64,000 nt of DNA from a virus: the IMG/VR virus record IMGVR_UViG_3300045988_182772, one strand, 5' to 3'. The translations under genes and the position numbers were made by a program. Below, in pieces: positions 10,764 to 49,251 of this stretch (position 1 is its first letter; each line of letters begins with the position of its first letter). Under the pieces are notes generated by a model that was given only the letters and a program-made list of their open reading frames with translations, ran no database searches and was not told the DNA's origin.

Positions 10764-10784
10764 CGCAGAGGCTCTTTTTTTTTG
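10752..10784 (+). terminator. rho-independent terminator
   Basis: gcctctgc-ttaac-gcagaggc followed by 10 T. Confidence 0.65.
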
Positions 10785-10990
10785 CGCTCACGGCCTTCTT
10801 AAAGTGTTGCCCATGTGTGGTATAAGGAGGGGCCTGAATTTTGACTTTTTGAGAAAGGGTGGGAAAGTTAGACTAAGAGGAGCGCCGCGTCAAGCACCTC
10901 TGGCCCGGAGCTGGATTCCCCATGTGGGTGAGGGATTTGACTTTGAGCGAAAAATATTCTGGGCGCGAGACAGGAGCGATTTTTCTATAA

Positions 10991-11400
10991 TGAATAGCAA
11001 TCTCGAACAAATTCAAGAGAGACAGCGCGTCCGCGCCCGCATCGTTTCTTTAGCAACGGTCGTGTGCCTGACGGCTGCTATGTTTACCGTCACCGCTTTT
11101 GCGGCGAATACGGACACCGCGCAGGGCTTCCAGCAAATCACGACGGCCGGTAAGAGTATTCTGAAGGGCCTCTGGGATATGCTGCAAGCGATTACCGCGC
11201 CTCTGGCGCTGGTTGGTATCGGCTTCAATGTCGTCAAGGCTCTGATTGGTACGGAGAAAGGCATGGAGAAGTGCAAGGACAACATCGTTAAGATTCTTTT
11301 TGTTGTCGGTGTTATCTTCCTTGCTCCGCTGTTCGTTACGACCGTTACCAGCGCGATTGGCAATATCGCTGACAACTCCACAAACCAAATCTTTGGCTGA
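10991..11400 (+). CDS. small secreted/membrane T4SS protein, VirB2/pilin-like candidate
   Basis: Signal peptide plus two hydrophobic segments. Size and position directly before the T4SS genes. Start uncertain (no clear SD). Confidence 0.4.
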
Positions 11401-22000: not shown

Positions 22001-22759
22001 TTGATTTCGGGGGTATTGGCAATTTTCTTTTGGAATGTCATTTCAGTTCCTATCACCACAAAAATATCCCTGGTCATATTCCTTTCCGCACCACTTGGCC
22101 TGCTTGGCTTGTTTGGAGTGAACGGCGACCCGCTGTCCACCTTTATCAAGATTTTCTTTTCATGGCGAAGAAAACGGGGGCTGATGCTGTTCAACAACGA
22201 AGCACGAGCGTTGAAGGAAGCCCCCATTAAGCTCATGATGTCGGAAGATGGCATGGGCGACAAACTCAGGGATTTTCTGGATACCAGAAAGGAAAAGAAG
22301 GCCGCCGAACGGGCGAGTCAGGAGATGGTTGAAGGCAAAACATTCGAGTTTGCACCTGACAGTTCACTTGAGGGCAACTACATTGATGAAGATGACGATG
22401 GCGATGGAACGCCGAGCGGCAGCGCCGGCAATCGCCATAAAACAAAGCACAACCAATCCTTCGTTGAAGTGGAAGTCCTGGAAGAGGATGACGATACCTC
22501 GTTGGAACTGGACGGATTTACGGAGGATATCGACAGCAGCACCGTTGAGGAATCTGGTCTGCCGTTGCCGGATTTGGGCGGGGCCGACGATGTGGAATTG
22601 AGCAACGATGACACTAACGAGATGCCTGACGCCGAGGAATCTGACGATAATCCCCCCGCGTGTGAAACGCAACTGGAGCCTGCGGCAGAGGATAATTCTG
22701 ACGCCGAAGGCGACGCGGATGGGGAAGATGAAGAACTTGACGAGGAGGATTTGTTTTAA
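22001..22759 (+). CDS. VirB3-like small membrane protein with acidic C-terminal tail (precedes VirB4)
   Basis: Two TM segments at the N-terminus. Long D/E-rich tail. Stop overlaps the VirB4 start (TAATG). Confidence 0.4.
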   Translation: MISGVLAIFFWNVISVPITTKISLVIFLSAPLGLLGLFGVNGDPLSTFIKIFFSWRRKRGLMLFNNEARALKEAPIKLMMSEDGMGDKLRDFLDTRKEKKAAERASQEMVEGKTFEFAPDSSLEGNYIDEDDDGDGTPSGSAGNRHKTKHNQSFVEVEVLEEDDDTSLELDGFTEDIDSSTVEESGLPLPDLGGADDVELSNDDTNEMPDAEESDDNPPACETQLEPAAEDNSDAEGDADGEDEELDEEDLF

Positions 22760-25251
22760 TGTCCAGAAAACTGAAGCAAGTAATAAGCTGCCAATCTTTC
22801 TCGCCCATAAGTGATGTCCGTGACGGCATCATCGTCACGAAAGACGGGAAATTTGTGAAGTTGATGGAGTTCTCTCCTATCAACTACGGCTTACGGTCAA
22901 ACGAGGATAAGAACATGATTACGGCACAATATGCGGCCGCAATCCGCTCGTTTCCAAGCGTTGTCCAAATCAAAGTTCTGTCCAATCGCGCAAATGTCGA
23001 ACACTATATTTCCGGCATGGTGGAAAGCGTGCGCCATGAAAAGAATGAAGGAACCCGTGAACTGATGCGGGAGCAAATCGACATGATGTCAGAATTTGGC
23101 GCATCGCAAGGCGTATCCCGTCGCTTCTTTCTCGCATTCCAGTATGAGGAAGAAGAGGGATTCGCACATCGTTCACCATCATGGAATGAAATCAGAAGCA
23201 CCATTACGAGACAGGAGGACGCCATCAGAAGCAACCTTCGGGCCTGCGGCAACATTATGATTTCAAGGCCTCACGATGACGTCTATGTGCTTTCCACGCT
23301 TTACGATATCATGTCCAGAGCACAGAGCGCGAACCACCCGTTTGACGAGAGAATGGCGGATGTTGTTGCCCGATATACGGCGGCAAACATCGACTTCACG
23401 CGAGATAGCGCGGCGCATCTTCCTGTCAATGATGTGCTTGCTCCGTACTGCATTGATACGGAGTCAAGTCCCCGATATATCATCGTGGATGGCATCTACT
23501 ATATGTGCTGCTATCTTCCGAGCAATGCCTATCCTGTGCGCGTTCTTGGCGGCTGGATGCAGCTGCTGGCAGGGCTGGGAGAGGGGATTGATGTGGATGT
23601 TTGGCTTCAGAAGATTTCACCGGAGAAAATTCAAACGGCACTGCATCATGGCCTGCGGTTCAATGCAATGCGCTTCCGCAACACAGAAACCACCAGTAGT
23701 GACTACGATGATGTGAAGGCTGCGGTGGACGCAGGATACTATCTGAAAAGCTCTCTCGCGGCCGGCGACGAATTTGCCTATATGTCTACAATGCTCACTA
23801 TTACAGGCGAAAGCGAGCGAGAAATTGACTACAAATTCAAGGAAATCCGGCGCATTTTCATTGAGAGAGAATTGACTCTCAAGCCTTGTACTTTCCAGCA
23901 AGCAGAAGCGTTTCGCTCCACCATTCCCGTATGTGAGTATGACAAAAACCTATTCCGTAAGAGCCGCAGAAATATTCTGTGTTCTGATTTTGCGTCCACC
24001 TATATGTTCACATCTTCGGAGCTGTGCGATAAGGACGGCGTGATGCTGGGCGTGGATGATGTGTTCAAATCACCGGTTCTGGTCAACTTCTTCGACCGCC
24101 AGCAATACATCAATGCCAACATCAATATTGTCGGCTCCTCTGGCTCCGGTAAGACCTTCACCACGCAGGTTCTGGCTTTGAGAATGCGGGAGAAGGGGGT
24201 TCAAACCTTCATTATCGCGCCGCTGAAAGGCAAGGAGTTCCTGCCGCTTTGTGAGAAGGTCGGGGGCAGTTTCATTGAAATCAAACCTGGCTCCGGACAG
24301 AATATCAATATCATGGAGATACGCAAGAAGGAAGAGGGCAACGTCTACGATGACGATGGTGCGTTGGTCACTTCCGGCTCGATTTTGGCACAGAAAATCC
24401 AGCAGCTTCTCATTTTCTTTAAGCTGATTATCCCGGACATGACGCCAGAAGAGGTGCAGTATGTGGATGACGCGCTGCTGAAAACTTACGGCAATTTCGG
24501 AATTACCCATAAGAACAAGAGCCTGTTGGACCCCAACGACAAGAAGAAATACCGTAAAATGCCTATCCTTTCGGATGTATATTCTGAGCTGGAAAAGATG
24601 GGCGCACCAGCAAATCGTTTGTGCCGTTTGCTGACGCGATACACCACAGGTTCTGCATCTTCGTTCAACGCGCAAACCAATGTGAACCTTAACAACAAGT
24701 TCGTAGTGCTGGATGTTTCCGATGCGCAGAAAGACTTTCTTCCTGTGGCTATGTTCCTTGCATTGGATTATGTTTGGGATAAATGCAAAGAAAATCGGAA
24801 CGTCAACAAGTGTGTTTTCATTGACGAGACTTGGCGCTTGGTCTGCTCCGATGCACCTATCGAAGCCGCCAATTTCGTGGTCGAAATCTTCCGTACTATC
24901 CGAGGCTTCGGTGGAAGCGCCGTCGCTGCCACGCAGAATATCGCAGACTTCTTCTCTGCGGGAATTGGCACCGCCATCATCGGAAACGCCAAAATCAAAA
25001 TGATTTTGCGCAGCGAAAAAGAGGAAGCAAACGCGATTGCGGATGCGATTGGTCTGACCGACGAGGAACTCAAGCGTGTAAAAACCATGGACCGTGGAAC
25101 CTGTCTCCTGACCGCAAATGAGAACCACATTTTCATCAATGTTAAGGCGACGGATACGGAAGAATACCTGATAACGACTGACCCCAAAGCAAGAGCCGCT
25201 GCGAAGCGCCGAATTGAGCAGAAGCGTACTTGCGCTGCCTTCAGGCGCTGA
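22759..25251 (+). CDS. VirB4-family T4SS ATPase (TcpF/CagE/TrbE-like)
   Basis: Walker A GSSGSGKT. Walker B VFIDETWRL. 830 aa. Confidence 0.85.
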   Translation: MSRKLKQVISCQSFSPISDVRDGIIVTKDGKFVKLMEFSPINYGLRSNEDKNMITAQYAAAIRSFPSVVQIKVLSNRANVEHYISGMVESVRHEKNEGTRELMREQIDMMSEFGASQGVSRRFFLAFQYEEEEGFAHRSPSWNEIRSTITRQEDAIRSNLRACGNIMISRPHDDVYVLSTLYDIMSRAQSANHPFDERMADVVARYTAANIDFTRDSAAHLPVNDVLAPYCIDTESSPRYIIVDGIYYMCCYLPSNAYPVRVLGGWMQLLAGLGEGIDVDVWLQKISPEKIQTALHHGLRFNAMRFRNTETTSSDYDDVKAAVDAGYYLKSSLAAGDEFAYMSTMLTITGESEREIDYKFKEIRRIFIERELTLKPCTFQQAEAFRSTIPVCEYDKNLFRKSRRNILCSDFASTYMFTSSELCDKDGVMLGVDDVFKSPVLVNFFDRQQYINANINIVGSSGSGKTFTTQVLALRMREKGVQTFIIAPLKGKEFLPLCEKVGGSFIEIKPGSGQNINIMEIRKKEEGNVYDDDGALVTSGSILAQKIQQLLIFFKLIIPDMTPEEVQYVDDALLKTYGNFGITHKNKSLLDPNDKKKYRKMPILSDVYSELEKMGAPANRLCRLLTRYTTGSASSFNAQTNVNLNNKFVVLDVSDAQKDFLPVAMFLALDYVWDKCKENRNVNKCVFIDETWRLVCSDAPIEAANFVVEIFRTIRGFGGSAVAATQNIADFFSAGIGTAIIGNAKIKMILRSEKEEANAIADAIGLTDEELKRVKTMDRGTCLLTANENHIFINVKATDTEEYLITTDPKARAAAKRRIEQKRTCAAFRR

Positions 25252-25281: not shown

Positions 25282-25902
25282 GTGCTGACTATGTTATATG
25301 AAGCTCCTGTTGACAATTTGAAATGTCTCATGAGGTCATGTACTGTGCTGAGTCGAAGCGGGTTGTATCGCTTTTTCTCTTCGCAGCTTACGCAAGCGCA
25401 GGTTGATTTTCTTATCAATGCGCTGGCAAGCCAACGAGTCCTTGACATCGACGAACAGGACTACGAGCTGATTTGGTTTCACCGGATGGGCCTGAAAACA
25501 TCGAGGCTGAGACCTGAATATGTGAAGGCGAAAATCCGTGCGTTTTGGGTGATTGCTCGTGTCGGATGCGACGCTATTCTGGATGTAACCTCGCTGGACC
25601 ATCCGATGCAGTTCTCCTTCATCGCGAACACGTTGGACGAGAACGGTGAGGAGCGGTATATTCCGTATGATATTGCCGTCTGCAACACCGTTGACATCGC
25701 AAAGGCTGTTGTTTACAAGCGAAGCAAATGCGAACGGAGCGCCATTGAGGAGGAAGCTACGCACATCGCACTGGTAAATAATAAGGAAACCGGCGAGGCA
25801 ATTATGAAAGAATGCCTGGACGAAAATAGCCGCCTTTACCGTGGGTTTGACTGTTTCTGTACGCTGGATAATAACAATATTCCGAGGTATGTCTCATGGT
25901 GA
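25282..25902 (+). CDS. hypothetical protein (206 aa)
   Basis: ORF with RBS agaggtg. No motif. Confidence 0.35.
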   Translation: MLTMLYEAPVDNLKCLMRSCTVLSRSGLYRFFSSQLTQAQVDFLINALASQRVLDIDEQDYELIWFHRMGLKTSRLRPEYVKAKIRAFWVIARVGCDAILDVTSLDHPMQFSFIANTLDENGEERYIPYDIAVCNTVDIAKAVVYKRSKCERSAIEEEATHIALVNNKETGEAIMKECLDENSRLYRGFDCFCTLDNNNIPRYVSW

Positions 25903-26714
25903 ATTCAACTTTGCCGGATGAAGAATTCGTGTTGACGCTCATGCAAATCGACGAGGCAAAGTCCGTGGCAGAGGAAGTTGCAGGGGAAGCAAATGCGCTG
26001 AATAACCTTGCAGGAAGTGTGTTGAAGCTGTCTGAAAAAGTGGAGCACGACCACGGCTTTCTTGAACGCGAAGCAAATCAAATCGACGCACAGAAAATTG
26101 TGAAGTCCTTCTACGTTTCAGGACTCGTCCACACACACTCGCTGTATCAAGCAATCATCGCACCGAATACCGCAGGCGGACTTCTTTCGCAAGCAGCTGT
26201 TCAGAGGGAAAACTATCTTGCATTTGGCGCTGAAATCGAGGGAATCCGCACTTTCCTCTCGGAGGGAAAGCTGCTAATAAAGTTGCCGATGTTGCCTGTC
26301 ATTTGGAGCCGAAGTTACGCACTTACACATATCGAAAAGGCCTCTGCTTTGAAGCGGTTCTTCTCCTTTTTTACGCAGTCTTTGCACGAGAGCCTGATGC
26401 TTCTTGACAACGAAATTCCCCCGTTCCCAAGTCAAAGCATCAACTATATTTTTGTGTTTCCTTGCTCGGAAAATATCGTTGTTGACTGCGATAATTTCGA
26501 CACAAAAGCAATCACAGACACCATTTGCCTGCATACTTTTTGCGATGACTCCGCAGAAAAAACCAGCTTTCACATGACGGGTTTTCGCTCCGATGATGTT
26601 CCACGAGGAACCTACATTTGCGTCTGTCCGGACAAATTTTCGTCCGCAAATCCGCACGAAATCATTCAAATTTTCCATCAGAATTTTGCTGATTCACCGG
26701 CAAAAAAAGGCTGA
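25896..26714 (+). CDS. hypothetical protein (272 aa)
   Basis: Overlaps the previous stop (coupled). No motif. Confidence 0.35.
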   Translation: MVNSTLPDEEFVLTLMQIDEAKSVAEEVAGEANALNNLAGSVLKLSEKVEHDHGFLEREANQIDAQKIVKSFYVSGLVHTHSLYQAIIAPNTAGGLLSQAAVQRENYLAFGAEIEGIRTFLSEGKLLIKLPMLPVIWSRSYALTHIEKASALKRFFSFFTQSLHESLMLLDNEIPPFPSQSINYIFVFPCSENIVVDCDNFDTKAITDTICLHTFCDDSAEKTSFHMTGFRSDDVPRGTYICVCPDKFSSANPHEIIQIFHQNFADSPAKKG

Positions 26715-32957: not shown

Positions 32958-34070
32958 ATGGAATATTCGTACAAATTCAGAATTTATCCGAACACTGAGC
33001 AGCAAACGCTCATCCAAAAAACTTTCGGCTGCTCTCGGTTCGTCTACAACCATTTTCTCGCCCAGCGAATTGCGGAGTACAATGCCACGGGCAAAGCCCC
33101 CACACGGTTCCAGCAGGACAAAATGCTAACCTCGTTAAAGAAAGAACTGTTGTGGCTCAAAGAAGTGGACTCCACTGCCTTGCAATCTTCTCTACAAACG
33201 CTTGATTCTGCGTATCAGAACTTCTTCCGGCGGGTAAAGAACGGTGAGAAACCTGGCTATCCCAAGTTTAAGAGCAAGAAGAACCATCGGAAGTCCTACA
33301 AAAGCAAGTGTGTCGGGACGAACATCAAAGTAGTTGGGAAGTGTGTCCAACTCCCGAAACTCGGCCTTGTGAAGTGCCGTGTTTCAAAAGAAGTCAGGGG
33401 CCGTATCTTGTCCGCCACCATCAGTCAGAACCCGTCCGGCAAATACTTTGCGGCCCTGTGCTGTGCCGATGTGGACATTGAACCTCTGCCCTCTACCGGG
33501 GCGGTGGTCGGCCTCGACATGGGCTTGAAGTCATTCGCAATCACCTCCGATGGGGTTGAGTACAAGAACCACCGCTACCTCCGCAAGAGCCAGAAGAAAC
33601 TTGCCCGTCTCCAGCGGCAGCTCTCCCGAAAATCAAAGGGGAGCAATCGCAGAGAGAAAGCACGGGTCAAAGTAGCGAGGCTCCACGAGAAGGTAACGAA
33701 CCAGCGGAACGATACCCTGCACAAGCTGTCCACCTCGCTTGTTCGGGACTATGACCTGATCTCCGTGGAGGACTTAGCATCCAAGAACATGGTGCGAAAC
33801 CACAAGTTGGCCCGGTCAATCTCGGACGCTTCCTGGGGCGAGTTCCGGCGGCAGTTGGAATACAAGGCGGCGTGGTACGGCAAGCGGGTGGTCACAGTTG
33901 ACCGCTTCTATCCTTCCAGCCAGCTATGCTCCTGCTGCGGCGCACAGTGGCCCGGCACAAAGGATTTGGACGTCCGGGAGTGGACTTGCCCGGTATGCGG
34001 CACGGTGCATGACCGTGACCACAACGCCGCTGTAAACATTCTTAACGAAGGTCTACGTCTCTTGGCGTGA
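32958..34070 (+). CDS. tnpB: TnpB (IS605 OrfB family RNA-guided endonuclease)
   Basis: RuvC-like motifs. C-terminal zinc finger [10 protein letters not shown]...[18 protein letters not shown]. 370 aa. Confidence 0.85.
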
Positions 34071-39116: not shown

Positions 39117-40985
39117 TTGGATTACCACGCTTTTTGTCAAAAATTCAATATTCGCGGCCTCAACGAACAGCAGGAAGCCGCTGTCCGGCGGGTAAATGGA
39201 GCAACGCTGCTCCTTGCTGTGCCGGGAAGCGGAAAAACGACTGTCATCGTAGCGAGGACTGGCTATCTCATGTATGTCGCAGGCGTACAGCCGGAGAATA
39301 TCCTGACCATCACATACACCCGTGCGGCGGCGAAGGAGATGAAAGAGCGCTTCGCAAAGAAGTTTGCGCCGGAACGGATGCCGGCATTCTCCACCATCAA
39401 CAGCTTCTGCCTGTCCGTCATCAATACCTGCGTGAAAGAAAAGTATATCCATGTGCCAAAGCTGGTGCCGAACAATGAGAGCATCATCCGCGCCATCGCA
39501 GCGAAGATGCTCCCGGAGTACCCCAGCGACTCGCAGGTACGGTCACTGGCGCAGAAGGTGTGCAAAGTAAAGAACAAGCTCATGACCTTGCAGGAAATCG
39601 AGGCCATTGAGGAAAACAGCCTTGAGTTCCCCGTGTTTTATCAGGCGTACAAGCTGTATATGAGCGAACACGACCTGATGGATTTTGATGACCAACTGCT
39701 CATGGCTAATGATTTGCTGGATGAATACCCGGACATCTTACAGCGGGCGCATGAGAAGTTCCGCTATGTGAGCGTGGACGAGGCGCAGGACACCTCGTAT
39801 GTCCAGCACCTTATTGTCCGGAAGCTGGTTGGCCGGAACGGCAATATCTTCATGGTCGGAGACGAAGACCAGAGCATCTACGGCTTCCGGGGCGCGTATC
39901 CTGCTGCATTGCTGGACTTCCAGAGCAACTATAACGAACCCTGTATCCTGCGTATGGAGACCAATTACCGCAGCGACAGGAACATCGTCTTAGCGGCCAA
40001 TCAGTTCATTAAACGGAATACGAGGCGACTCGACAAGAATATGCGTGCCCAGTCTCAAAAGGACGGAGCCATCGTCGTGACCTGCATCGACCGCATGGAA
40101 CAGCAGGCAGAGCTTCTGCTGGAGCGCATCCGGAATCAGAAGCCGGATGAATCTCTGGCAATTCTGTATCGGAATAACGACTCTGCTATCCCACTTATCA
40201 ATCTGCTCCAGATGAACGGCATTCAGGTTCAAACCAGAGATGCGACGAAGACCTTCATGACAAACTACGTCATTCGGGACCTGCTCGACTTTATGCTCCT
40301 GGCCCTGAACCCTGCTGACACCACCGCTTTTGGGCATCTGTACTACAAAATGGGACTTTACATGAAGGGTGTCACCGCCAAGCGCATTATCGAGGCGGTT
40401 GAAGAAGGGGAGTGCCGGAACGTATTCAGCGCCGCGATGAAATTCGCGGGCGGCAAGGGAGACACATGGAAAATAGGATGCCTGCCGAGGGACTTTTCAG
40501 ACATTGCGAAGAAGAAGCCCGTCGAGGCTATCGACTACATTCTGTTCGTGCTCGACTATTGGAACAACTGGCTGACGAAGAAAATTGACGCCGGTGCTTC
40601 CGAGCAGTTTATCCGCCTGCGTATCAGCATTTTGAAGATGGTAGCGGAGAAGTATTCGACCATTCCGGACTTTCTTGCCGCACTCAAAAACATCACGGAA
40701 TATAAGGGCTGCGAGGATTCCAATGTGACCGTTACCACCATCCATTCCAGTAAAGGTCTGGAGTTCGATAAGGTCATCTTAATCGACATGGTATCTGGCA
40801 TCATTCCCGGTGACAGCGACGACCGCGACGCGGAGGATGACGAAGAGGATGCACGAGCATTCTACGTCGGAGCGACGCGGGCGCGGCACGAACTGGAAAT
40901 CATCACCTGCCGAAAGATGTACGAAGAAAAACTGGAAGTATCTGAATTTGTGCCGCGCCTGCTGGCGGCGGGGAAAGGAGACTGA
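39117..40985 (+). CDS. UvrD/PcrA/Rep-family SF1 DNA helicase
   Basis: Walker A AVPGSGKTTV. DEAQD box (VDEAQDTS). Motif III GDEDQSIYGFRGA. Motif VI VGATRARHEL. Confidence 0.85.
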   Translation: MDYHAFCQKFNIRGLNEQQEAAVRRVNGATLLLAVPGSGKTTVIVARTGYLMYVAGVQPENILTITYTRAAAKEMKERFAKKFAPERMPAFSTINSFCLSVINTCVKEKYIHVPKLVPNNESIIRAIAAKMLPEYPSDSQVRSLAQKVCKVKNKLMTLQEIEAIEENSLEFPVFYQAYKLYMSEHDLMDFDDQLLMANDLLDEYPDILQRAHEKFRYVSVDEAQDTSYVQHLIVRKLVGRNGNIFMVGDEDQSIYGFRGAYPAALLDFQSNYNEPCILRMETNYRSDRNIVLAANQFIKRNTRRLDKNMRAQSQKDGAIVVTCIDRMEQQAELLLERIRNQKPDESLAILYRNNDSAIPLINLLQMNGIQVQTRDATKTFMTNYVIRDLLDFMLLALNPADTTAFGHLYYKMGLYMKGVTAKRIIEAVEEGECRNVFSAAMKFAGGKGDTWKIGCLPRDFSDIAKKKPVEAIDYILFVLDYWNNWLTKKIDAGASEQFIRLRISILKMVAEKYSTIPDFLAALKNITEYKGCEDSNVTVTTIHSSKGLEFDKVILIDMVSGIIPGDSDDRDAEDDEEDARAFYVGATRARHELEIITCRKMYEEKLEVSEFVPRLLAAGKGD

Positions 40986-41359: not shown

Positions 41360-41384
41360 TCGGCATTTTCAGGAGGAATGAACA

Positions 41385-41987
41385 ATGACTTTTGTTAGTT
41401 TTGCTCTGGAATTAGGGCGGCTCATGATGCCGCAGCTTGCGGTACTCATTGTGCTATGGGTGTTGTGCGATTTCGCCGTGGGCAAGCTCAATGCGCCGAG
41501 ACCGCTGGTGCTTGCGGTTCTGTGGCTATTCCTACTCATTGAAACACTGAACGTCGGCAGCCGCGTGACGCTGTTCTTCCAGAGCCGGGAGTTCCAGATT
41601 CCCAAAGTCTCTCTTGGTATCCAGCTTGTGCTGCTGGCAGTCCTGGTGGGCTTGCCGGCTGCGAAGTATTTCGTGGAGAAGAAGTTCGCCAACTGCGGTG
41701 CTGTGAGTAAGGCGCTCGCTTTATTCTTCCATACCGTTCTTTCCCTCACAGCGGCGATTGTACTGCTGGCAAGCCTGTATTCTGTAGTTATGGCACGGGC
41801 GGATTTCCCTGCGGGTACTGCTGATGCCGTCTGCTTTGTTGTGGCGGTATTGGCGCTGTATCAGCCATTACTTGTGTACTTTGGCGGAAACAGGCTGGAC
41901 GATATCCTGTCGCTCATTCGGCAGGCCAATCGCAACGCGGTGTCTGTCCATCAGAATGATACGAACCATGTCAGCGCAGGTAAGTAA
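41385..41987 (+). CDS. hypothetical membrane protein (200 aa)
   Basis: Five to six TM helices. RBS aggagg. Confidence 0.4.
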   Translation: MTFVSFALELGRLMMPQLAVLIVLWVLCDFAVGKLNAPRPLVLAVLWLFLLIETLNVGSRVTLFFQSREFQIPKVSLGIQLVLLAVLVGLPAAKYFVEKKFANCGAVSKALALFFHTVLSLTAAIVLLASLYSVVMARADFPAGTADAVCFVVAVLALYQPLLVYFGGNRLDDILSLIRQANRNAVSVHQNDTNHVSAGK

Positions 41988-42329
41988 ACACGCGAGGAAG
42001 CGTACAAAACAGCGTGCTGGTCTCGGCAAAAGAGCAGCCGTGCGCAATGCACAGAAAGCCTTTGACTTTGGCGTGAAGCACTCGGAGACCAGAGGCCACC
42101 TGAATGGATACCTTACATCCATCCGCTTCAAAAACAAAACCATCAACAATATTCGAGTATATCACCGGCACGTCTATCTGTTTGCCGGGGATGTCCTCGT
42201 AACGGTGCTCAATCTGCCAAACAGCTTGTGGTCGCAGGCAGAGTCCTGTGAGAAGAGAAAAAACATGAGTCTCGAATGTCCTGTCAATCAGGACGCTGCT
42301 CTTTAGCTTTACCCCGCCGAATGGCGGGC

Positions 42330-42640
42330 GGGTGCGCCGGAAACTCCGGCTCAGCCTCCTGTCATTTGGTGTGGCTTATGACCCGCAAGGGTAGTAAGCC
42401 TCGTCAATAAGCCTCAGCCGCAAGGCTACGATATGCCGGAATACATAGGCACCGGCGGATACTCCACAAGTCCGCCGCTCTGCGGGTGCGTATTAAACAT
42501 CTCTGAGGGGAAGGAGAAGTGTGCGTACCATCAAACCCAGTGTATCTTTGGCGATGTGGACCACAGTAACGCCGTGCAAGCGGTAAGTGCTGATTTACCA
42601 AATTTTTGGTTTTTCTTGAAGCCTGTATCGAAGACTACCA
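42330..42640 (+). ncRNA. candidate tracrRNA-like / omegaRNA-scaffold transcript containing an anti-repeat to the downstream array. Boundaries approximate.
   Basis: cctgtcatttggtg at ~42358-42371 is the exact reverse complement of the repeat core caccaaatgacagg. GC-rich structured region. Weak terminator-like hairpin plus tttttggttttt near 42600-42640. Confidence 0.3.
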
Positions 42641-42651
42641 ACCTACATTGA

Positions 42652-42880
42652 GTTGATACCCCCGCCAAGTAGCTATACCCTATGGCGAATACAGCAATCA
42701 ACTCTCGATTGTTGACGTACCCCACCAAATGACAGGCAGCTATACCAATTTTACCGTCTTATTTCCTTGTCGAATAGTTGACGTACCCCACCGAATGACA
42801 GGCAGCTATACCGCAGCCCCCCCGCAAACGGAGCATCACGCACAGTTGACGTCCCCCACCGAATGACAGGAAACTGCACC
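42652..42880 (+). CRISPR. CRISPR-like mini-array: degenerate repeat (42652-42679), 36-nt repeats at 42711-42746, 42777-42812, 42845-42880, with unique spacers of 31, 30 and 32 nt
   Basis: Repeat 1 GTTGACGTACCCCACCAAATGACAGGCAGCTATACC. Repeat 2 identical except A17G. Repeat 3 GTTGACGTCCCCCACCGAATGACAGGAAACTGCACC. Upstream copy GTTGATACCCCCGCCAAG--TAGCTATACC. Spacers aattttaccgtcttatttccttgtcgaata and gcagcccccccgcaaacggagcatcacgcaca. Confidence 0.5.
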
Positions 42881-42904
42881 CGCAGCGTGAAAGGAAAAAA
42901 TAAG

Positions 42905-44299
42905 ATGCCAGTATGTGTTTTAAGTGCAAACGGTGAACGGCTGATGCCAACCGAAAATTACGGCAAAGTGCGCCATCTGCTGAAGGAGGGCCGCGCTGTG
43001 ATTGCAAAGCGAAACCCGTTCACCATCCAGCTGACCTACGAGACCAGTACCTATACTCAGTCCATCGAAATGTGCGTCGGCACCGGATATGAGCATATCG
43101 GCGTCAGCATTAAGACAAAGGCAAAAGAGGTCGTATCGCAGCAATATGATTTGCTCACGAACGAGCGCTCCCGCCATGACGACTGCCGAGTGCACCGCCG
43201 GACGCGCAGAAACCACCTGCGGTATCGGGCTGCACGGTTCAATAACCGTGTATCCATCAGAAAGCCCGGTTGGATTGCTCCGTCCCTGGATAATAAGGTG
43301 GAGCGGCACCTGGATATTATCTCCCGCTATCTGTCTGTCATGCCTGTCACGGATGTCTTTATCAAGGCCGCAACATACGATACACAGCTCCTTGCGGCGC
43401 TGGAGGCAGGGGAGCCTGTCCCGCAGGGCAAGGACTATCAGCATGGGCCGCAGTACGGCCACGATACGCTGCGGGAAGCGGTCTTTGAACGAGACCACTA
43501 TACCTGTGTGTATTGCAAGAGAGGCCTGAAAGACGGCGCTATCCTTCATGTCCATCATGCCTACTACTGGAAGGGTCTGCATGGGAACAGCATGAGGGAG
43601 CTTGCGACCTGCTGCGAGAAGTGCAACACACCTGCCAATCACAAGGAGGGCGGGAAGCTGTGGGGCTTCGATAAGCCTCTGCGGAAATATACCGGCGAAG
43701 CGTTTATGAATAGCGTGCGCTGGATTCTCTATCAGCGTGCGATGGCCCGCTTCCAGGGTGTTGCGGAAGTACACATGACCTATGGCGTCATCTCCAAGCG
43801 CGTCCGCACCAACCTCGGCCTCCCGTATTCCTGCGCTACGGATGCCTACTGCATGGGCGAGCTGCGTCCGGAAGCCAGATGCGAAACAGAGGTCTTCCAG
43901 AAATACAGGCGAAACAACAGAGTCCTATCCAAATTCTATGACGCCAAATATTACGACACACGGGAAAAGGGAGTTATCCGTTCTGGCAACGAGCTGTCCT
44001 CCGGCAGGACGAACCGCAATCATAACCTTGACGGCGAAAATCTGCGCCGGTTCCGTGGCTGTAAGAAGTCAAAGGGCCGAACCTCGACCAGAAAGCAGAG
44101 ATATGCCATGCAGCCGGGAGATATCGTGGTCTACGGCAATCGCAAATACGTTTCCAAGGGCTGCTCCAGCTATGGCAGGGCATTAAGCCTACTCACGGAT
44201 GGAAAGCCGCTTATGGTCAGCATGAAGAAAATCCAGCTTGTTCGTCATAAGGGCGGCTGGGTGCGGCTTCCCCATGCAGCAGCCGAGGCAAAAAAATAA
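42905..44299 (+). CDS. iscB: IscB-like RNA-guided nuclease candidate (PLMP-like N-terminus, RRxRR arginine-rich bridge helix, HNH), 465 aa. The RuvC-I catalytic Asp is not evident.
   Basis: MPVCVLSANGERLMPTENYGKVRHLLKEGRAVIAKRNPFTIQL (PLMP-like). HRRTRRNHLRYRAARF (RRxRR). HNH CVYCKR...HVHHAYYW...CCEKCNTPANH. RBS aaaggaaaaaataag then ATG. Track ORF 42863 trimmed because the upstream codons lie inside repeat 3. Confidence 0.6.
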   Translation: MPVCVLSANGERLMPTENYGKVRHLLKEGRAVIAKRNPFTIQLTYETSTYTQSIEMCVGTGYEHIGVSIKTKAKEVVSQQYDLLTNERSRHDDCRVHRRTRRNHLRYRAARFNNRVSIRKPGWIAPSLDNKVERHLDIISRYLSVMPVTDVFIKAATYDTQLLAALEAGEPVPQGKDYQHGPQYGHDTLREAVFERDHYTCVYCKRGLKDGAILHVHHAYYWKGLHGNSMRELATCCEKCNTPANHKEGGKLWGFDKPLRKYTGEAFMNSVRWILYQRAMARFQGVAEVHMTYGVISKRVRTNLGLPYSCATDAYCMGELRPEARCETEVFQKYRRNNRVLSKFYDAKYYDTREKGVIRSGNELSSGRTNRNHNLDGENLRRFRGCKKSKGRTSTRKQRYAMQPGDIVVYGNRKYVSKGCSSYGRALSLLTDGKPLMVSMKKIQLVRHKGGWVRLPHAAAEAKK

Positions 44300-44682: not shown

Positions 44683-45180
44683 ATGAAAAACATCATGCTC
44701 AGCATCCGACCTGAGTGGCTCCAGAAAATCCTGTCGGGCCAGAAGACCGTGGAGCTGCGCCTGTCCAGACCGAACCTTACGCCGCCCTTCATGGTATTTC
44801 TCTACTGCTCCTGCAAGGGTACAAAGAAGCCCGGTGAAATTCTTGAAATCCATAGCGGCGGCAAAATCTACAAGGCAAACGGTCTTGTGGTAGGGGAGTT
44901 TACCTGTACCGAAATTGACCGTGTGGTGCGCGTGGGCTATATGGGCAGCAACGCGCCGCTTCAATACTGTGTCAACGCACAACCTGGAAACTACACCCCA
45001 GCGGGGAAACTGTATGAGGACGCCTGCCTCACCGTGAAGCAAGCAGAGGACTACCTCTGTGGCCGCGTGGGATACGGATGGCACATCTCTGATGTGCAGA
45101 CCTATGACCGGCCCAAGAGCCTCGACTGCTTCGCACTTGCGAGAGCACCGCAGAGTTGGCAGTACGTCCACGATTTTTAA
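44683..45180 (+). CDS. ASCH-domain protein
   Basis: MKNIMLSIRPEWLQKILSGQKTVELR matches the ASCH N-terminal signature. RBS aaaggag. Confidence 0.5.
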   Translation: MKNIMLSIRPEWLQKILSGQKTVELRLSRPNLTPPFMVFLYCSCKGTKKPGEILEIHSGGKIYKANGLVVGEFTCTEIDRVVRVGYMGSNAPLQYCVNAQPGNYTPAGKLYEDACLTVKQAEDYLCGRVGYGWHISDVQTYDRPKSLDCFALARAPQSWQYVHDF

Positions 45181-45195
45181 GGAGGGATTCAAAAA

Positions 45196-45411
45196 ATGGC
45201 AAATTACAGAGTTTGTTTTCGGCTGCCCACATTTGTGGTACAGCTGAGCTTTGAGGCGGCAGAGAGGGATATCTCATACGAGGAAATTGCTGCATCCATC
45301 AACAAAGAGAAGGTCGCGGAACTTCTGTGTCTTGACGCACTGGGCTACAGTGCGGAAGACATAGAAATCATCACCCCGGAAGAGTATGACGAGGAGGTTG
45401 GAGCGGAATGA
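45196..45411 (+). CDS. small acidic hypothetical protein (71 aa)
   Basis: RBS aaggaggg. Confidence 0.35.
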   Translation: MANYRVCFRLPTFVVQLSFEAAERDISYEEIAASINKEKVAELLCLDALGYSAEDIEIITPEEYDEEVGAE

Positions 45412-46670
45412 ACACTGAGGAGCGTTTCCTGCTTCGCTCGTCAGTAGAATGGCGAAAGAATTTGATGCAGGATTGCTTGTGTATGCCGTGTGCTGAGTTC
45501 TCTGACTCTTTCGACGCAGCTGTAGACGCTGCCATCGCCACATTCCCTGAGTTGGAGCGGGAAGCTATCTTAAAACGCTACCGCGACGGTCTTACACCAA
45601 CACAATGCGCAAACGCACTGAAAATTGACATCGGCAAGTTCTACTCTTGCTTCGACCTCGCCATAAGGAGGCTGCGTCACCCCAAATATGCGGGGGGTAT
45701 CCTGAAAGAAATGCGCCGGTTTGCAGGCAGCCCTCTCGCCTCTGCTTTGAAGGAGGCCATTGAGAATGGCAACTGGAAAAAAATCGAGGAGTTGTGCGAT
45801 TCTGTTCCGTTTCAGTGCCTCAATTTCTCGACTCGCACCAAGAACTGCCTTATGTTCAGTGGTGCCCAAAGTATCGGCGATGTTGTTCGACTGATAGAGA
45901 GCGGCAAACTGAAGAATCTGCGCCAATGCGGGCAGGGGACCCTTCAGAATATTATCGACGTACTGGAAAAGGCTCTGCCGTTCCATTTCATCCTTGGAAA
46001 GCCAGCTCAATTCTGTCCGGAAACGAGTGATGCCTTCACCCGGAAGGAACACACTCGCCAGCTCTCTGCCATGCTGGAGCGATACATCGACCCGCGCAAC
46101 GACCCACGCATCTACTGGGCGAGAGAGGTCACATTCGACTACTCTACGAACCACAAAATCCGCGTGGACTATATGCGCTTTCAGCCGCTCAACAATTCGA
46201 CCTCCGGCATTGAGAAGGGGGACTTCTACGCCTACGAGGTCAAGTCCTCTGTGGAGGATTTCAAATCTCCTAACGGGCACAACTTCATCGCGGACTACAA
46301 CTACTACGTTATGCCCGCAGACGTCTTCGAAGCGGTGAAGGATACTGTGCCATACGGCGTCGGTGTGCTTTGCCCGGACGGCGGGCATCTGCGATGCGTG
46401 AGGAAAGCCGTGAGGAAGGACCGAACCAGACCGGTCAGCGAGATGCTGCTCATGCTGTGGCGCAGCTCACGAAGAGATTTTCCCGCCACTGACGTGGCCC
46501 CGGTAATGCACACCCGCTGGGCGCATCTTGGCGGGGACGAGTGGTGTTGCCCTGCGTGCGGCTTTGTCATTACCACTGAGGGCAGTTGGGACAAGCCTAC
46601 CAAAAAATACTGCGAGGATTGCGGGGCCAAGATGGACGGAGGTGCTGACCATGAAGACAGACAAGATTAA
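45408..46670 (+). CDS. regulatory protein with sigma-70 region-4-type HTH at the N-terminus and a C-terminal zinc ribbon
   Basis: ELEREAILKRYRDGLTPTQCANALKIDIGKFYSCFDLAIRRLRH (region 4-like). C-terminal CCPACG...CEDCG. Confidence 0.4.
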   Translation: MNTEERFLLRSSVEWRKNLMQDCLCMPCAEFSDSFDAAVDAAIATFPELEREAILKRYRDGLTPTQCANALKIDIGKFYSCFDLAIRRLRHPKYAGGILKEMRRFAGSPLASALKEAIENGNWKKIEELCDSVPFQCLNFSTRTKNCLMFSGAQSIGDVVRLIESGKLKNLRQCGQGTLQNIIDVLEKALPFHFILGKPAQFCPETSDAFTRKEHTRQLSAMLERYIDPRNDPRIYWAREVTFDYSTNHKIRVDYMRFQPLNNSTSGIEKGDFYAYEVKSSVEDFKSPNGHNFIADYNYYVMPADVFEAVKDTVPYGVGVLCPDGGHLRCVRKAVRKDRTRPVSEMLLMLWRSSRRDFPATDVAPVMHTRWAHLGGDEWCCPACGFVITTEGSWDKPTKKYCEDCGAKMDGGADHEDRQD

Positions 46671-47037
46671 CCAGCCTGAGTTCGCCCCGGAGGAGTGGCG
46701 GAAGGCGGCCATTATGTACGATACATCCTTTGCCTGGTGTAAAAATCAAATTTCAGCCTGGGGTAAGAATCAAATTTCATTTACACCGGGCTTTAACGAG
46801 ATGTTCGATGAAGCGCTGGACACACTTCCTGAGCGAAACCGCGATATCGTCCAAAAGTATTTTCGTGACAGAATGACGTTTTCGCAAATCGCCGACCTGC
46901 ACGGCACCAGCAGAAGCATAGTTCGCCATCTGTGTATCTGGACGGTATGGAGGGTCATGAATTTGATTCTGCTGCGAGAAGGAAGCAACCAAAATGCCGC
47001 GCCACAAACAGGCGGAGGAACTGAAGGTGGGTATTGA
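46651..47037 (+). CDS. small sigma-70 region-4-like HTH protein
   Basis: LPERNRDIVQKYFRDRMTFSQIADLHGTSRSIVRHL. In-frame ATG with RBS overlapping the upstream gene end. Confidence 0.4.
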   Translation: MKTDKINQPEFAPEEWRKAAIMYDTSFAWCKNQISAWGKNQISFTPGFNEMFDEALDTLPERNRDIVQKYFRDRMTFSQIADLHGTSRSIVRHLCIWTVWRVMNLILLREGSNQNAAPQTGGGTEGGY

Positions 47038-47521
47038 CATCAATAGCCTGCCGCTTTCCGCACAGATTCAGGTGCGTGCAAAGCTCGACGAGCAGAAGCG
47101 CGAACAGAACCAGCAGCGAACAAAAAAACAGTCGGAAGCACAGAAAAGGCAAAAACAGCCGAAAGAAGCGGACTCTGCTGAGCCATCCAAATATCGCAAT
47201 GTAAAGGTTTTCCGCGTGGTGGATGGAGAAACCGTGAAATTCCCCAGCAAGCGGGAGGCACGCCGCTTCGATGAACTGTATTTGCAGTACAAGGGCGGTG
47301 CAATCCAGGACCTGCGGCTCCAGCAGGACTTCACGCTGGTCGAGGGCTATACACGGCCAAATGGCAAGCGGGTTCGCCCAATGGTCTATAAGGCAGATTT
47401 CGTATACCTTCGCAACGGTAAACGCATCGTGGAAGACGCGAAGGGAAAACGAACCGAAAAGTATCTCATGAAACGCAAACTCATGTTGGAAAAGTACGGA
47501 ATCGAAATTTCGGAGGTGTAA
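46994..47521 (+). CDS. DUF1064-family protein (phage-type; basic N-terminus)
   Basis: SKREARRFDELYLQYKGGAIQDLRLQQDFTLVEGYTRPNGKRVRPMVYKADFVYL...VEDAKG fits the DUF1064 pattern. Confidence 0.45.
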   Translation: MPRHKQAEELKVGIDINSLPLSAQIQVRAKLDEQKREQNQQRTKKQSEAQKRQKQPKEADSAEPSKYRNVKVFRVVDGETVKFPSKREARRFDELYLQYKGGAIQDLRLQQDFTLVEGYTRPNGKRVRPMVYKADFVYLRNGKRIVEDAKGKRTEKYLMKRKLMLEKYGIEISEV

Positions 47522-47526
47522 TATCA

Positions 47527-48030
47527 ATGTTTGAAAACGGTAAGTTCCCAACGATTGAAGAGCTTTTGGAACGGGGAGAACACCTCATTCAGAAGGCAGT
47601 TGACGGAAAAAGATTAAGCGGCGAGGAAACGCATTTTCTCAAATTGCAAAATATATGGCTTGCGCAAAGGAGGGATGAACAGGAAAAAAACTGCGCGCGT
47701 CCTCTTGTGGAGCAGCTCAAGAAAACAACCCCCTTTGTGCAGGATGTATTCCGCAGCACCGAATATTCCGAGTTCGCCCTCTGGTGCATTGAGATTCTCA
47801 CTACCGCCAGCCGGCACAACGATGACGGCTCAAACGACATCTGCGGTTGTTGGATTACGGCAGACAACAGCACGACCTACGAGGAGATGTGTCGCCGTCT
47901 GGAAGGAGTGAAGACGAAAGCCGATATTCTGGCTCTCTCCACCACGCCAAGTACCGTTGAGGCAATCAGTACGGCCACACCGCGCTGGAGGGCGGAGGTG
48001 GAGCAACTCCGCGCACAACAGCAAAAATAG
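47527..48030 (+). CDS. hypothetical protein (167 aa)
   Basis: ORF with terminator at 48046-48076. Confidence 0.4.
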   Translation: MFENGKFPTIEELLERGEHLIQKAVDGKRLSGEETHFLKLQNIWLAQRRDEQEKNCARPLVEQLKKTTPFVQDVFRSTEYSEFALWCIEILTTASRHNDDGSNDICGCWITADNSTTYEEMCRRLEGVKTKADILALSTTPSTVEAISTATPRWRAEVEQLRAQQQK

Positions 48031-48045
48031 TCTCTCCCATCCTGA

Positions 48046-48076
48046 AAGGCCGTCAGCACATCGCTGGCGGCCTTTT
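48046..48076 (+). terminator. rho-independent terminator
   Basis: ggccgtcagcacatcgctggcggcc followed by ttttg. Confidence 0.55.
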
Positions 48077-48077
48077 G

Positions 48078-48110
48078 ATTGACAAGTAAGCTATTGTGTG
48101 GTATAATTGC
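48078..48110 (+). promoter_or_regulatory. promoter cassette P6
   Basis: ttgacaagtaagctattgtgtggtataattgc. Confidence 0.55.
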
Positions 48111-48129
48111 TTCATTCAGTGAAGGGGGG

Positions 48130-49251
48130 GTGGTTGACATCACGAATACCAGTAATTTAGCCGCTGACCGTGCGCTTGCCTATGAAGCCATTGAAAGGCA
48201 GCCTGAAACAGAAGAAATCGCAGCTTCGAATGAACAGGAGACCGAAGCGAAGCAGCCGGGAAATATCGGCGACCATGTGGCGATGTATCTCAGCCAAATT
48301 GGCAGCATCCCCATTATGCCGCAGGTGGAAGCGAATCGCTGCATTGAAAAAGTGCAGAAGGGGAATGCCGCTGCCGAACAGCTCGAAACGCTGCGGGTGA
48401 TTGCCGAGGAGAGCGGGTATGCAGTTGACCCCGAAATCAAGAAAGACCTGATGAAGGCCATAGAAGCAGGAAGACGGGCGAAAGATAAGGTTGTTGAGGG
48501 CAATCTTCGGCTTGTTGTGTCCATCGCAAAGAAATATATAAACTCAGCCGATTCTATGGTGTTCATGGACCTCATCCAGGAGGGCAACATTGGCCTCATG
48601 CGTTCCATCGACTCTTTTGACATTTCGAGGAATGTGAAGTTTTCCACCTACGCAACCTTCTGGATAAGGCAAAACATCACAAGAGCGCTTGCCACGACGG
48701 ACCCAGCCATTCGCAAGCCCATCTATGTTGCGGAGGGCAGGCGGAGCGTCAATAATGCAAAAGAACAAATGCAACAAAAAGGCTTACCTTGTGATGACCC
48801 TTTAGAAATCGCAAAATACATGGAGGGGGATGCGTGGGATTCCCTTTCAAAAAGGGAGCAGCAGAAAAAACTGCGCATCATCCAACACTCGCTCCAGTAC
48901 CGGAAGCCGGACTCGTTGGATGCGCCCGTCAATTCGGACGCCGCAAGCGATTCCAACACACCGCTTTCGGAATTCATCCCAAGCCATAACGAGTGGGATA
49001 ACCCGGAAATTTCAACGTCAGGGAAGGCACTATGGGAAACGATGGACAAAATCCTGCACGATATGCCCGCACGAGACGCCTGTGTGCTTCGCTTACGATT
49101 CGGATTGGAGGATGGTTGTGCTTATACCCTCAAAGAAATCGGGGACGAAATGGACTTAACGCGAGAGCGTGTCCGTCAGGTTACAGATAAAACACTCGAT
49201 AAGCTACGCAACGGAAAGGCAGGGAAGATGCTTCAGGACTTTCTTGAATAA
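48130..49251 (+). CDS. sigma-70-family RNA polymerase sigma factor (regions 1.2, 2, 3, 4). Start uncertain: GTG 48130, GTG 48277 or ATG 48283.
   Basis: MYLSQIGSIPIM (region 1.2). LRLVVSIAKKY...FSTYATFWIRQNITRAL (region 2). AYTLKEIGDEMDLTRERVRQV (region 4). The track start 48079 would include the promoter, so it was trimmed. Confidence 0.7.
   Translation: MVDITNTSNLAADRALAYEAIERQPETEEIAASNEQETEAKQPGNIGDHVAMYLSQIGSIPIMPQVEANRCIEKVQKGNAAAEQLETLRVIAEESGYAVDPEIKKDLMKAIEAGRRAKDKVVEGNLRLVVSIAKKYINSADSMVFMDLIQEGNIGLMRSIDSFDISRNVKFSTYATFWIRQNITRALATTDPAIRKPIYVAEGRRSVNNAKEQMQQKGLPCDDPLEIAKYMEGDAWDSLSKREQQKKLRIIQHSLQYRKPDSLDAPVNSDAASDSNTPLSEFIPSHNEWDNPEISTSGKALWETMDKILHDMPARDACVLRLRFGLEDGCAYTLKEIGDEMDLTRERVRQVTDKTLDKLRNGKAGKMLQDFLE

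Follow-up and report, generated by a model that had tools for sequence, protein, structure and literature searches.

A CRISPR array lying between an omegaRNA and an iscB gene on a conjugative element of human-gut bacteria: a probable minimal CRISPR system without an adaptation module

Introduction

IscB proteins associated with clustered regularly interspaced short palindromic repeat (CRISPR) arrays were reported, according to the summary given in PMC11610941, by Altae-Tran et al. (2021), and one such protein, DelIscB, has been engineered; its array lies upstream of the anti-repeat in one noncoding RNA and it cuts both DNA strands (PMC12660989). In the OMEGA protein OgeuIscB, the "guide adaptor hairpin" of the omegaRNA corresponds to the repeat:anti-repeat duplex of Cas9 (PMC9640706). 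In the "Cas12 + IscB + HTH" system the RuvC site of IscB is inactivated, the HNH site is apparently active and a nickase has been proposed (Altae-Tran et al. 2023, PMC10910872). The locus described here occupies positions 42312-44299 of a 64,000-nt stretch of DNA catalogued as IMG/VR virus record IMGVR_UViG_3300045988_182772 (hereafter, the window) and contains, in order on the + strand, an omegaRNA, a CRISPR array and an iscB gene for a protein of 464 aa. It is probably a minimal CRISPR system that has an IscB (OMEGA) protein as its effector and lacks an adaptation module.

The locus resembles CRISPR-associated IscBs such as DelIscB in its IscB-sized effector without a recognition (REC) lobe, its omegaRNA-type scaffold, its array and the absence of an adjacent adaptation module, as well as in the use of a repeat:anti-repeat duplex in place of the guide-adaptor hairpin. 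Whereas this duplex forms in cis in DelIscB, the order here is trans-activating CRISPR RNA (tracrRNA or tracr), array and iscB, so that pairing has to take place in trans or across a long distance. Further differences from DelIscB are an anti-repeat that is bipartite around a retained hairpin and for which a cis "pseudo-repeat" competes, a RuvC site that is inactivated as opposed to the double-strand nuclease of DelIscB, and descent in a separate lineage, the closest relatives of which (50-58% identity) are canonical IscBs without arrays. With canonical OMEGA IscBs (OgeuIscB, HEARO RF02033) the locus shares the PLMP, bridge helix, HNH and target-adjacent motif (TAM)-interacting domain fold of the protein and the core, pseudoknot and terminal hairpins of the omegaRNA, but differs in having no guide and no P1 5' strand in cis, an array between omegaRNA and start codon, and substitutions of RuvC residues. 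Type II CRISPR-Cas9 systems, especially the compact types II-C and II-D (Cas9d), likewise have a tracrRNA with a 5' anti-repeat, a separate CRISPR RNA (crRNA), an HNH domain within RuvC and a polarised array of 36-nt repeats and roughly 30-nt spacers with a degenerate terminal repeat. In contrast with these systems, the effector here has 464 aa (Cas9 has at least about 700 aa), no REC lobe, a dead RuvC site and a HEARO omegaRNA scaffold, and no cas1, cas2, csn2 or cas4 was noted in the locus (window open reading frames (ORFs) were scanned for Cas1, Cas2 and Cas4).

The Cas12 + IscB + HTH system also has a RuvC-dead, HNH-retaining IscB at a CRISPR-linked locus, but there an inactivated Cas12 binds the crRNAs, an HTH protein is present and the organisms are environmental, whereas here no Cas12 is adjacent and the array fits the omegaRNA of the IscB itself. 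An analogy may be drawn with type IV, type V-M and Tn7-CAST (CRISPR-associated transposon) systems, in which carriage by plasmids or integrative and conjugative elements (ICEs), impaired interference, short arrays, adaptation in trans and conflict between mobile elements would be shared features; the effector families are unrelated and the likeness would be one of function only. Unlike TldR and dCas12f-sigma regulators, the locus has no conserved guide that matches a promoter, as spacers vary and match nothing in the window or fetched loci. A literature search found no description of the present combination, in which a trans tracr precedes the array, the anti-repeat is bipartite and faces a competitor in cis, RuvC is lost, the arrays are dynamic and carried by a widespread conjugative element of the human gut, and the tracr-array module has been duplicated as an orphan. 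CRISPR-associated IscB is already described, although rare, and what is new is this combination of features. Where the original prediction, made from the letters of the window alone, offered either a type II-like system or a CRISPR-associated OMEGA system, the association of CRISPR with IscB held up; the kind of system is not a new one.

Results

Organization of the locus

The features of the locus, all on the + strand, were as follows, with the evidence for each in brackets.

42312-42615 (+): whole tracrRNA-like omegaRNA module (conserved block common to iscB-adjacent and orphan copies; HEARO match; fold z score)
42312-42328 (+): cis pseudo-repeat CCCCGCCGAATGGCGGG (minimum free energy (MFE) fold of the tracr alone; comparison with canonical omegaRNAs; cofold with the full 5' region)
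42353-42374 (+): long arm of the anti-repeat, AGCCTCCTGTCATTTGGTGTGG, pairing with repeat nucleotides 10-31 (inverted repeats; cofold MFE)
42375-42398 (+): hairpin b of the guide-adaptor region, CTTATGACCCGCAAGGGTAGTAAG, kept from canonical omegaRNAs (HEARO alignment; cofold)
42402-42408 (+): short arm of the anti-repeat, CGTCAAT, equivalent to the P1 3' strand and pairing with repeat nucleotides 1-7, GTTGACG (HEARO alignment; cofold)
42403-42566 (+): omegaRNA core with nexus, central stem and pseudoknot (Rfam HEARO RF02033)
42567-42615 (+): terminal hairpins with a weak terminator-like end, ACCAAATTTTTGGT plus TTTTC (sequence; MFE; conserved in all copies)
42616-42651 (+): leader between tracr and array, the sequence of which varies by locus type (alignment)
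42652-42679 (+): repeat 0, degenerate, with an 8-nt internal deletion (sequence)
42680-42710 (+): spacer 0, 31 nt, unique to the window (sequence; spacer comparison)
42711-42746 (+): repeat 1, GTTGACGTACCCCACCAAATGACAGGCAGCTATACC, 36 nt (repeat search; locus comparison)
42747-42776 (+): spacer 1, 30 nt, unique to the window (locus comparison)
42777-42812 (+): repeat 2, 36 nt (repeat search; locus comparison)
42813-42844 (+): spacer 2, 32 nt, GCAGCCCCCCCGCAAACGG..., the commonest spacer family, found in 15 of 29 arrays (locus comparison)
42845-42880 (+): repeat 3, terminal, 36 nt, with a degenerate 3' end (repeat search; locus comparison)
42905-44299 (+): iscB, 464 aa, with PLMP, RuvC (inactivated), bridge helix, HNH and TAM-interacting domains (profiles; alignments; AlphaFold model)

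Three 36-nt repeats, a degenerate fourth copy and unique spacers ahead of the gene, which had been predicted, were all present, with repeat spacings of 66 and 68 nt, repeat similarity that reached 39 nt when 3' context was counted, and 24 nt between the end of the array and the ATG of iscB at 42905. The 14-mer CCTGTCATTTGGTG at 42358-42371 was the exact reverse complement of the repeat core, as had also been predicted, and complementarity extended to 22 nt at 86%. The same arrangement recurred in about 30 independent contigs, so that chance is not a tenable explanation of the locus.

The structured stretch upstream of the array, noted previously as such, proved to be a bona fide omegaRNA. Thus, Rfam HEARO (RF02033) matched 42403-42566 (+) with 87 bits against a gathering score of 83 (E = 2.4e-17), and compared with shuffled sequences the block 42308-42618 folded with z = -4.0 on the + strand and -0.8 on the - strand. 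An AU-rich hairpin followed by a T-run closed the structured region at about 42597-42615. The distance from the end of the HEARO match to the iscB ATG was 339 nt in the window as opposed to 50-77 nt in relatives without repeats.

Pairing of repeat and anti-repeat

In four relatives with canonical omegaRNAs (contigs L025 and L036-L038) the scaffold runs, after the guide, in the order P1 5' strand (GUCAAUAA), hairpin a, hairpin b, P1 3' strand (GAUUGAC) and AGCC pseudoknot strand. HEARO alignments indicated that the omegaRNA of the window clade, whether adjacent to iscB or in the orphan module described below, has neither a guide of its own nor a P1 5' strand in cis. The P1 3' strand is CGUCAAU (42402-42408), hairpin b is retained and the anti-repeat replaces the 3' strand of hairpin a. 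The repeat, GUUGACG-UC-CCCCACCAAAUGACAGGUAGCU, can be aligned to the 5' end of canonical omegaRNA scaffolds; its nucleotides 1-7 complement CGUCAAU and nucleotides 10-31 complement the anti-repeat in the predicted pairing. The repeat restores the missing strands, and the spacer therefore ends exactly where the guide of an omegaRNA ends. In comparison with canonical P1 (GUCAAU:AUUGAC), three of six pairs were changed on both sides while pairing between repeat and tracr was kept. The geometry expected of a tracrRNA anti-repeat or omegaRNA scaffold, to which attention had been drawn from the sequence, can accordingly be specified: the anti-repeat and CGTCAAT make up the 3' half of the guide-adaptor hairpin and the repeat supplies the 5' half. 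As read from these alignments, crRNA and tracrRNA are the two pieces of an omegaRNA that has been divided at the loop of hairpin a.

The folding check proposed with the original prediction gave a similar result. The bipartite duplex was the MFE structure found by RNAcofold for three of three window repeats, with a ddG of about -23 kcal/mol as compared with -3.3 +/- 2.3 kcal/mol for 300 shuffled repeats (best shuffle, -10.7). The anti-repeat was invariant across seven aligned copies, i.e., its complementarity to the repeat is conserved among homologues. At one position facing a U of the anti-repeat, repeats differed by A or G, and variation of this kind fits wobble pairing between RNA strands.

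The pseudo-repeat CCCCGCCGAAUGGCGGG (42312-42328) consists of the repeat core with four A to G changes, each of which allows a G.U pair with the anti-repeat. It is the equivalent of the 5' strand that hairpin a originally had (compare CCCCGCCUAAAU of L038), is self-complementary and closes onto the anti-repeat when the tracr is folded alone. With this cis competitor included, the trans duplex was still favoured by 14-17 kcal/mol, and the released strand folded on itself. It would seem that the pseudo-repeat is a competitor in cis that is displaced by the crRNA, starting at the free CGUCAAU. Either competitor or chaperone may describe its relation to the anti-repeat.

Variation of arrays among related loci

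Loci available for comparison were those of one genome (Oscillospiraceae bacterium CM18GR_63, JAWQDX01), 21 human-gut metagenome contigs with IscBs of 96-100% identity, contigs from exact-protein look-ups and seven IMG/VR contigs. Among 29 iscB-adjacent arrays the repeat was conserved, the number of repeats ranged from 1 to 10 and about 21 spacer families were distinguished; the repeats are therefore not part of a fixed sequence without variable spacers, which had been named as the finding that would tell against a CRISPR array. Spacer length was exactly 30 nt for 17 of 27 distinct spacers (range 26-33), although a few "spacers" had collapsed to 9-13 nt. No conflict in the order of shared spacers was noted in 46 ordered pairs. 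Widely shared spacers adjoined iscB, beside the degenerate terminal repeat, and spacers seen once or twice were proximal to the tracr. Flanking DNA was about 98-100% identical between loci with entirely different spacers. Many short metagenome contigs (L002, L012, L014, L019, L022, L044 and L045) began 200-290 nt upstream of the iscB start, inside the array, and breaks at this point suggest that co-existing strains differ in spacers. Taken from sequence comparison, this pattern is the population signature of a CRISPR array, with polarised gain and internal deletion of spacers. The two oldest and most shared spacers (GCAGCCCCCCCGCAAACGG..., window 42813-42844, and GTCAAGCGCCGCAAACGC..., L001:2845-2940) had CCGCAAACG in common and are able to fold into GNRA-type hairpins similar to the terminal one of canonical omegaRNAs.

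Many relatives carried in addition an orphan tracr that has its own short array; it lies about 1.36 kb upstream, between genes for proteins of 123 aa and 200 aa and ahead of an unrelated gene. In L001 this module spanned 1039-1420, with a HEARO match at 1039-1258 (93.7 bits) followed by 2-4 repeats; it was also present in L003, L004, L005, L006, L009, L010, L011, L013, L023, L035, L039 and L043. In L009 the orphan module contained two 30-nt spacers while a single repeat adjoined iscB. The module was absent from the window, where the corresponding intergenic gap (41360-41384) was 25 nt.

These observations bear on whether the repeats might be targets instead of guide components. The initial idea, that the anti-repeat is a guide and the repeats are its self-targets, was rejected in view of the HEARO alignments and of the pairing of repeat nucleotides 1-7 with CGUCAAU. 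A fuller version, in which an ordinary omegaRNA has the anti-repeat as its fixed guide, the repeats serve as operators (protospacer plus TAM) and a RuvC-dead IscB represses its own gene in the manner of TldR, draws on the position of the anti-repeat 5' of the scaffold core, the position of the repeats immediately ahead of the iscB start, the dead RuvC site and a conserved GTTGACGT beside the complementary core that could be read as the complement of a TAM; exapted nuclease-dead TnpB and Cas12f regulators provide precedents (PMC10705468, PMC13472631). This explanation is nevertheless improbable. The anti-repeat aligns with the 3' strand of hairpin a, not with the guide position, and the P1 5' strand is missing in cis. 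GTTGACG complements the unpaired CGUCAAU and is explained by RNA pairing, not as a TAM, while A or G opposite U likewise fits RNA wobble. Operators would require neither uniform 30-nt intervals that are rapidly replaced nor a copy number of 1 to 10, and the orphan module precedes an unrelated gene.

The IscB protein and its relatives

The 464-aa ORF matched the NCBIfam profile guided_IscB ("RNA-guided endonuclease IscB") at 7e-70 and Pfam RRXRR at 1.7e-39, and IscB chains in the PDB were matched by sequence with E values of about 1e-28 to 1e-30. An AlphaFold model (mean predicted local distance difference test (pLDDT) score 67) gave as best Foldseek matches the IscB-omegaRNA complexes 8csz (3.5e-24) and 7xht (9e-20), with IsrB and Cas9d ranked after IscBs and ordinary Cas9s far weaker. 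The protein is a genuine IscB as opposed to a plain HNH endonuclease, and its predicted PLMP and bridge-helix architecture was borne out by profiles, PDB sequence matches and Foldseek.

Catalytic residues were read from an alignment with 19 homologues and from pairwise alignment to OgeuIscB-type chains, with reference to the catalytic residues of OgeuIscB, which are D61, E193, H340 and D343 for RuvC and H247 for HNH (PMC9640706). Three of the four RuvC residues were replaced (D61 by G59, E193 by K154 and H340 by C310) and only D313, equivalent to D343, was kept, whereas D, E and H of RuvC were retained by all 18 of the more distant homologues aligned (49-58% identity). The inactivation of RuvC had gone unnoticed in the original prediction. 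HNH residues H217, H218 (equivalent to OgeuIscB H247), N245 and H246 as well as the Cys pairs were invariant; H241 of the family is N here, and the same change was noted in a RuvC-intact homologue, P0048. The pattern of G/K/C/D in RuvC and H/H/N/H in HNH was identical in 14 of 14 distinct clade genes from the fetched loci. On this evidence from residues the RuvC site is dead and the HNH site looks functional. Thus, of the IscB-sized type II-like nuclease that had been predicted, the IscB part stands while the full nuclease is replaced, in view of G59, K154 and C310, by an HNH-only nickase or binder.

Across the 14 unique clade genes, the pairwise ratio of nonsynonymous to synonymous substitution rates (dN/dS) was 0.16 and the 55 HNH codons contained no amino-acid-changing polymorphism, and the protein is therefore maintained by selection. 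More specifically, substitution patterns indicate that the iscB gene as a whole is under purifying selection and that HNH is under constraint. A protein search returned a clade at 93-100% identity, in clusters of about 2,100 member sequences, and then a gap, the next relatives being at most 58% identical. In the four closest RuvC-intact relatives examined (L025, 50% identity; L036-L038, 56-57%), the HEARO match ended 50-77 nt before the start codon and no repeats were present. Since these four relatives have an intact RuvC, an ordinary omegaRNA and no array, the insertion of the array, the disappearance of guide and P1 strand in cis, and the inactivation of RuvC are, as far as sequence comparison can tell, innovations of this one lineage.

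It is quite improbable, given these results, that the locus is a decaying relic, i.e., an immobilised and inactive IscB element in which the repeats are tandem copies of the omegaRNA 5' end, prone to recombination and devoid of guide function. Such decay would account for the loss of three RuvC catalytic residues, for the frameshifts or truncations in L002, L018 and L019, for the deletion activity evident from collapsed 9-13-nt "spacers" and for the failure to find either adaptation genes or spacer targets. It does not accord with the dN/dS value, the invariant HNH region, the invariant tracr or the size of the protein cluster in public databases, and the frameshifted copies include a contig of very low coverage (L019, about 0.9). 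Nor can duplication and drift yield mutually unrelated spacers of uniform length between flanks that are about 98% identical.

The combination of a disabled effector with a tracr might also serve as an anti-CRISPR that acts by mimicry, sequestering the crRNAs of a host system with the same repeats. A phage-borne Cas9 with inactive RuvC, active HNH and a tracrRNA has been proposed to act in this way (PMC10910872), and the mobility of the present element, the lack of adaptation genes found on it and the extra orphan tracr copy in some relatives are compatible with such a role. This possibility is very improbable, as the element has matching arrays of its own which turn over, no close homologue with active RuvC was found (the next relatives, at most 58% identical, have no arrays) and the repeat was found in IMG/VR with this element only.

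Genetic context

Other genes of the window that bear on the nature of the element were as follows.

10537-11400: TrbC-like pilin
16120-17445: CHAP-lysozyme
17454-19730: coupling protein of a type IV secretion system (T4SS)
22759-25251: VirB4-like ATPase
32958-34070 (+): TnpB, 370 aa (HTH_OrfB_IS605, OrfB_IS605 and Cas12f1-like TNB domains), 9 kb upstream of iscB
39117-40985 (+): UvrD/REP-family helicase, three genes upstream of the tracr and, in relatives, one gene before the orphan module
44683-45180 (+): 165-aa protein directly after iscB (PADLOC PDC-M11B, a candidate defence component, 1.2e-11; no Pfam match)
45408-49251 (+): 420-aa RpoA-CTD-like protein, 128-aa sigma-70 r4 protein, DUF1064 protein and 390-aa sigma-70 r2+r4 protein, downstream of iscB

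ERF and UDG are also encoded. To judge from its gene content the window is a conjugative element, and the earlier description of the locus as cargo of such an element is upheld by the T4SS coupling protein, the VirB4-like ATPase and the pilin-like protein. In IMG/VR this element is listed among the viruses (L034, L035 and L039-L043, uncultivated virus genomes (UViGs) of 8-136 kb), which may be an error of classification or may reflect a hybrid of phage-plasmid type. No Y1 transposase domain was detected among the scanned ORFs adjoining iscB, and transposon ends were not searched for. No Cas12 or TnpB domain was detected in the neighbours of iscB, the nearest TnpB being the non-adjacent one 9 kb upstream.

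Two further candidates were set aside. A copy of the anti-repeat (CCTGTCATTTGGAG, 13 of 14 positions) at 26295-26308 (+), within the ORF 25896-26714, is probably a coincidence, as its flanks are unrelated and about 0.02 such copies are expected. A fluoride riboswitch match at 45355-45438 (-) was judged to be due to chance (15.8 bits as compared with a gathering score of 34, E = 0.75).

The cluster of sigma-like genes recalls dCas12f-sigma systems; no independent evidence of linkage was noted. Least probable of the explanations considered is RNA-guided control of transcription, in which a dead-RuvC IscB would recruit or block RNA polymerase together with the similarly oriented sigma-70 r4, RpoA-CTD-like and sigma-70 r2+r4 proteins at 45408-49251, as in dCas12f-sigmaE systems (precedent, PMC13472631). 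A regulatory role would call for fixed guides, but the spacers differ from one near-identical element to the next and none of them matches the element itself. In addition the catalytic residues of HNH are conserved, and the sigma genes are backbone genes of the element for which no independent lineage shows a link to IscB.

Discussion

The interpretation of the locus as a minimal IscB-based CRISPR system without an adaptation module is a probable one, and several observations weigh against it. No spacer target was found: 28 spacers compared by BLAST with the window and all fetched loci gave none; 22 spacers compared with INPHARED (GenBank phages) gave one 27-nt match, to an archaeal virus, with E = 1 as expected by chance; the same 22 spacers compared with PLSDB plasmids gave no match; and seven spacer 20-mers matched in IMG/VR only the arrays themselves. 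The search for protospacers in phage and plasmid databases that had been recommended was, in short, negative. Spacers without an identifiable target are unsurprising for elements of gut Clostridia. In agreement with the earlier description of the locus as lacking cas1 and cas2, no Pfam or PADLOC match to Cas1, Cas2 or Cas4 was obtained among about 60 window ORFs, including every + strand ORF of at least 250 aa. A sigma-70 consensus promoter scan of 41900-43000 yielded no site for tracr or array. The first repeat differs from the second at several positions in some arrays, unlike the product of simple duplication at the leader end, and the two oldest spacers may be remnants of an ancestral 5' untranslated region as opposed to acquired DNA. 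The cis pseudo-repeat, as folded with the tracr alone, could hold the anti-repeat closed. The clade is too uniform (96-100% identity) for internal covariation, and canonical relatives were used for comparison instead. Finally, the putative activity of HNH is read from conserved residues only, and N replaces the H241 of the family in the window protein.

If the system is nonetheless a minimal CRISPR system, its history and action might be as follows. An ancestral omegaRNA would have been split inside the guide-adaptor hairpin. The 3' part, comprising anti-repeat, hairpin b, CGUCAAU, nexus and pseudoknot core, would remain upstream as a tracrRNA-like scaffold, while the 5' part (guide, P1 5' strand and 5' strand of hairpin a) would now exist as the "spacer + repeat" units between scaffold and iscB. 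Tracr and array would be transcribed on the + strand, possibly as one precursor by readthrough of the weak terminator at about 42597-42615, and repeat:anti-repeat duplexes would be processed, presumably by RNase III and trimming. The resulting crRNA would consist of the 3' part of a 30-nt spacer plus the repeat, and its bipartite duplex with the tracr would rebuild the guide adaptor. Free CGUCAAU is probably a toehold from which the repeat would displace the weaker, G.U-containing pseudo-repeat.

The ribonucleoprotein would then recognise TAM-flanked DNA that matches the repeat-proximal part of a spacer, and HNH would nick the target strand or the complex would merely block the site. No double-strand breaks would be expected, only a nick or a block, because three RuvC catalytic residues are lost. 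The conjugative element may use the system against rival plasmids, ICEs or phages, and a Cas1-Cas2 integrase provided in trans would presumably insert new spacers. The effector is, on the sequence evidence, probably an RNA-guided nickase or binder that serves the conjugative element.

A more far-reaching synthesis, which is offered tentatively and is unlikely to hold in full, would join these elements into a recent, Cas9-independent birth of CRISPR and tracrRNA from a transposon omegaRNA. The G.U-weakened cis strand would be displaced via the toehold, and the effector would be an HNH-only nickase whose nicks are perhaps entry points for the UvrD-type helicase (39117-40985) in a nick-and-unwind attack on rival plasmids, with spacers obtained via a host type II integrase or by a route independent of Cas1. 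The use of a nick as an entry point for the nearby helicase is speculation. The thought of helicase loading at nicks beside a putative nickase is suggestive, but the helicase may be no more than a part of the machinery for conjugation or replication.

The locus bears on the question of how a single IscB omegaRNA gave rise to the array and the dual crRNA:tracrRNA guide of type II systems, and few CRISPR-associated IscBs are known. The present locus is a clean natural intermediate, in that its scaffold is recognisable as HEARO, its repeat can be aligned to the 5' end of omegaRNAs, its array is demonstrably dynamic in human-gut populations and its nearest relatives are ordinary IscBs without arrays. 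With an intermediate that can be traced in sequence and relatives that lack the array, each step is therefore testable by swapping parts. The system would also provide a natural, programmable HNH-only IscB with multiple guides, relevant to the design of compact nickases and base editors, and would add a class 2 member to the interference-attenuated CRISPR systems that are carried by plasmids and ICEs without adaptation genes of their own. The locus looks like a snapshot of CRISPR-Cas9-type RNAs arising from transposon RNAs.

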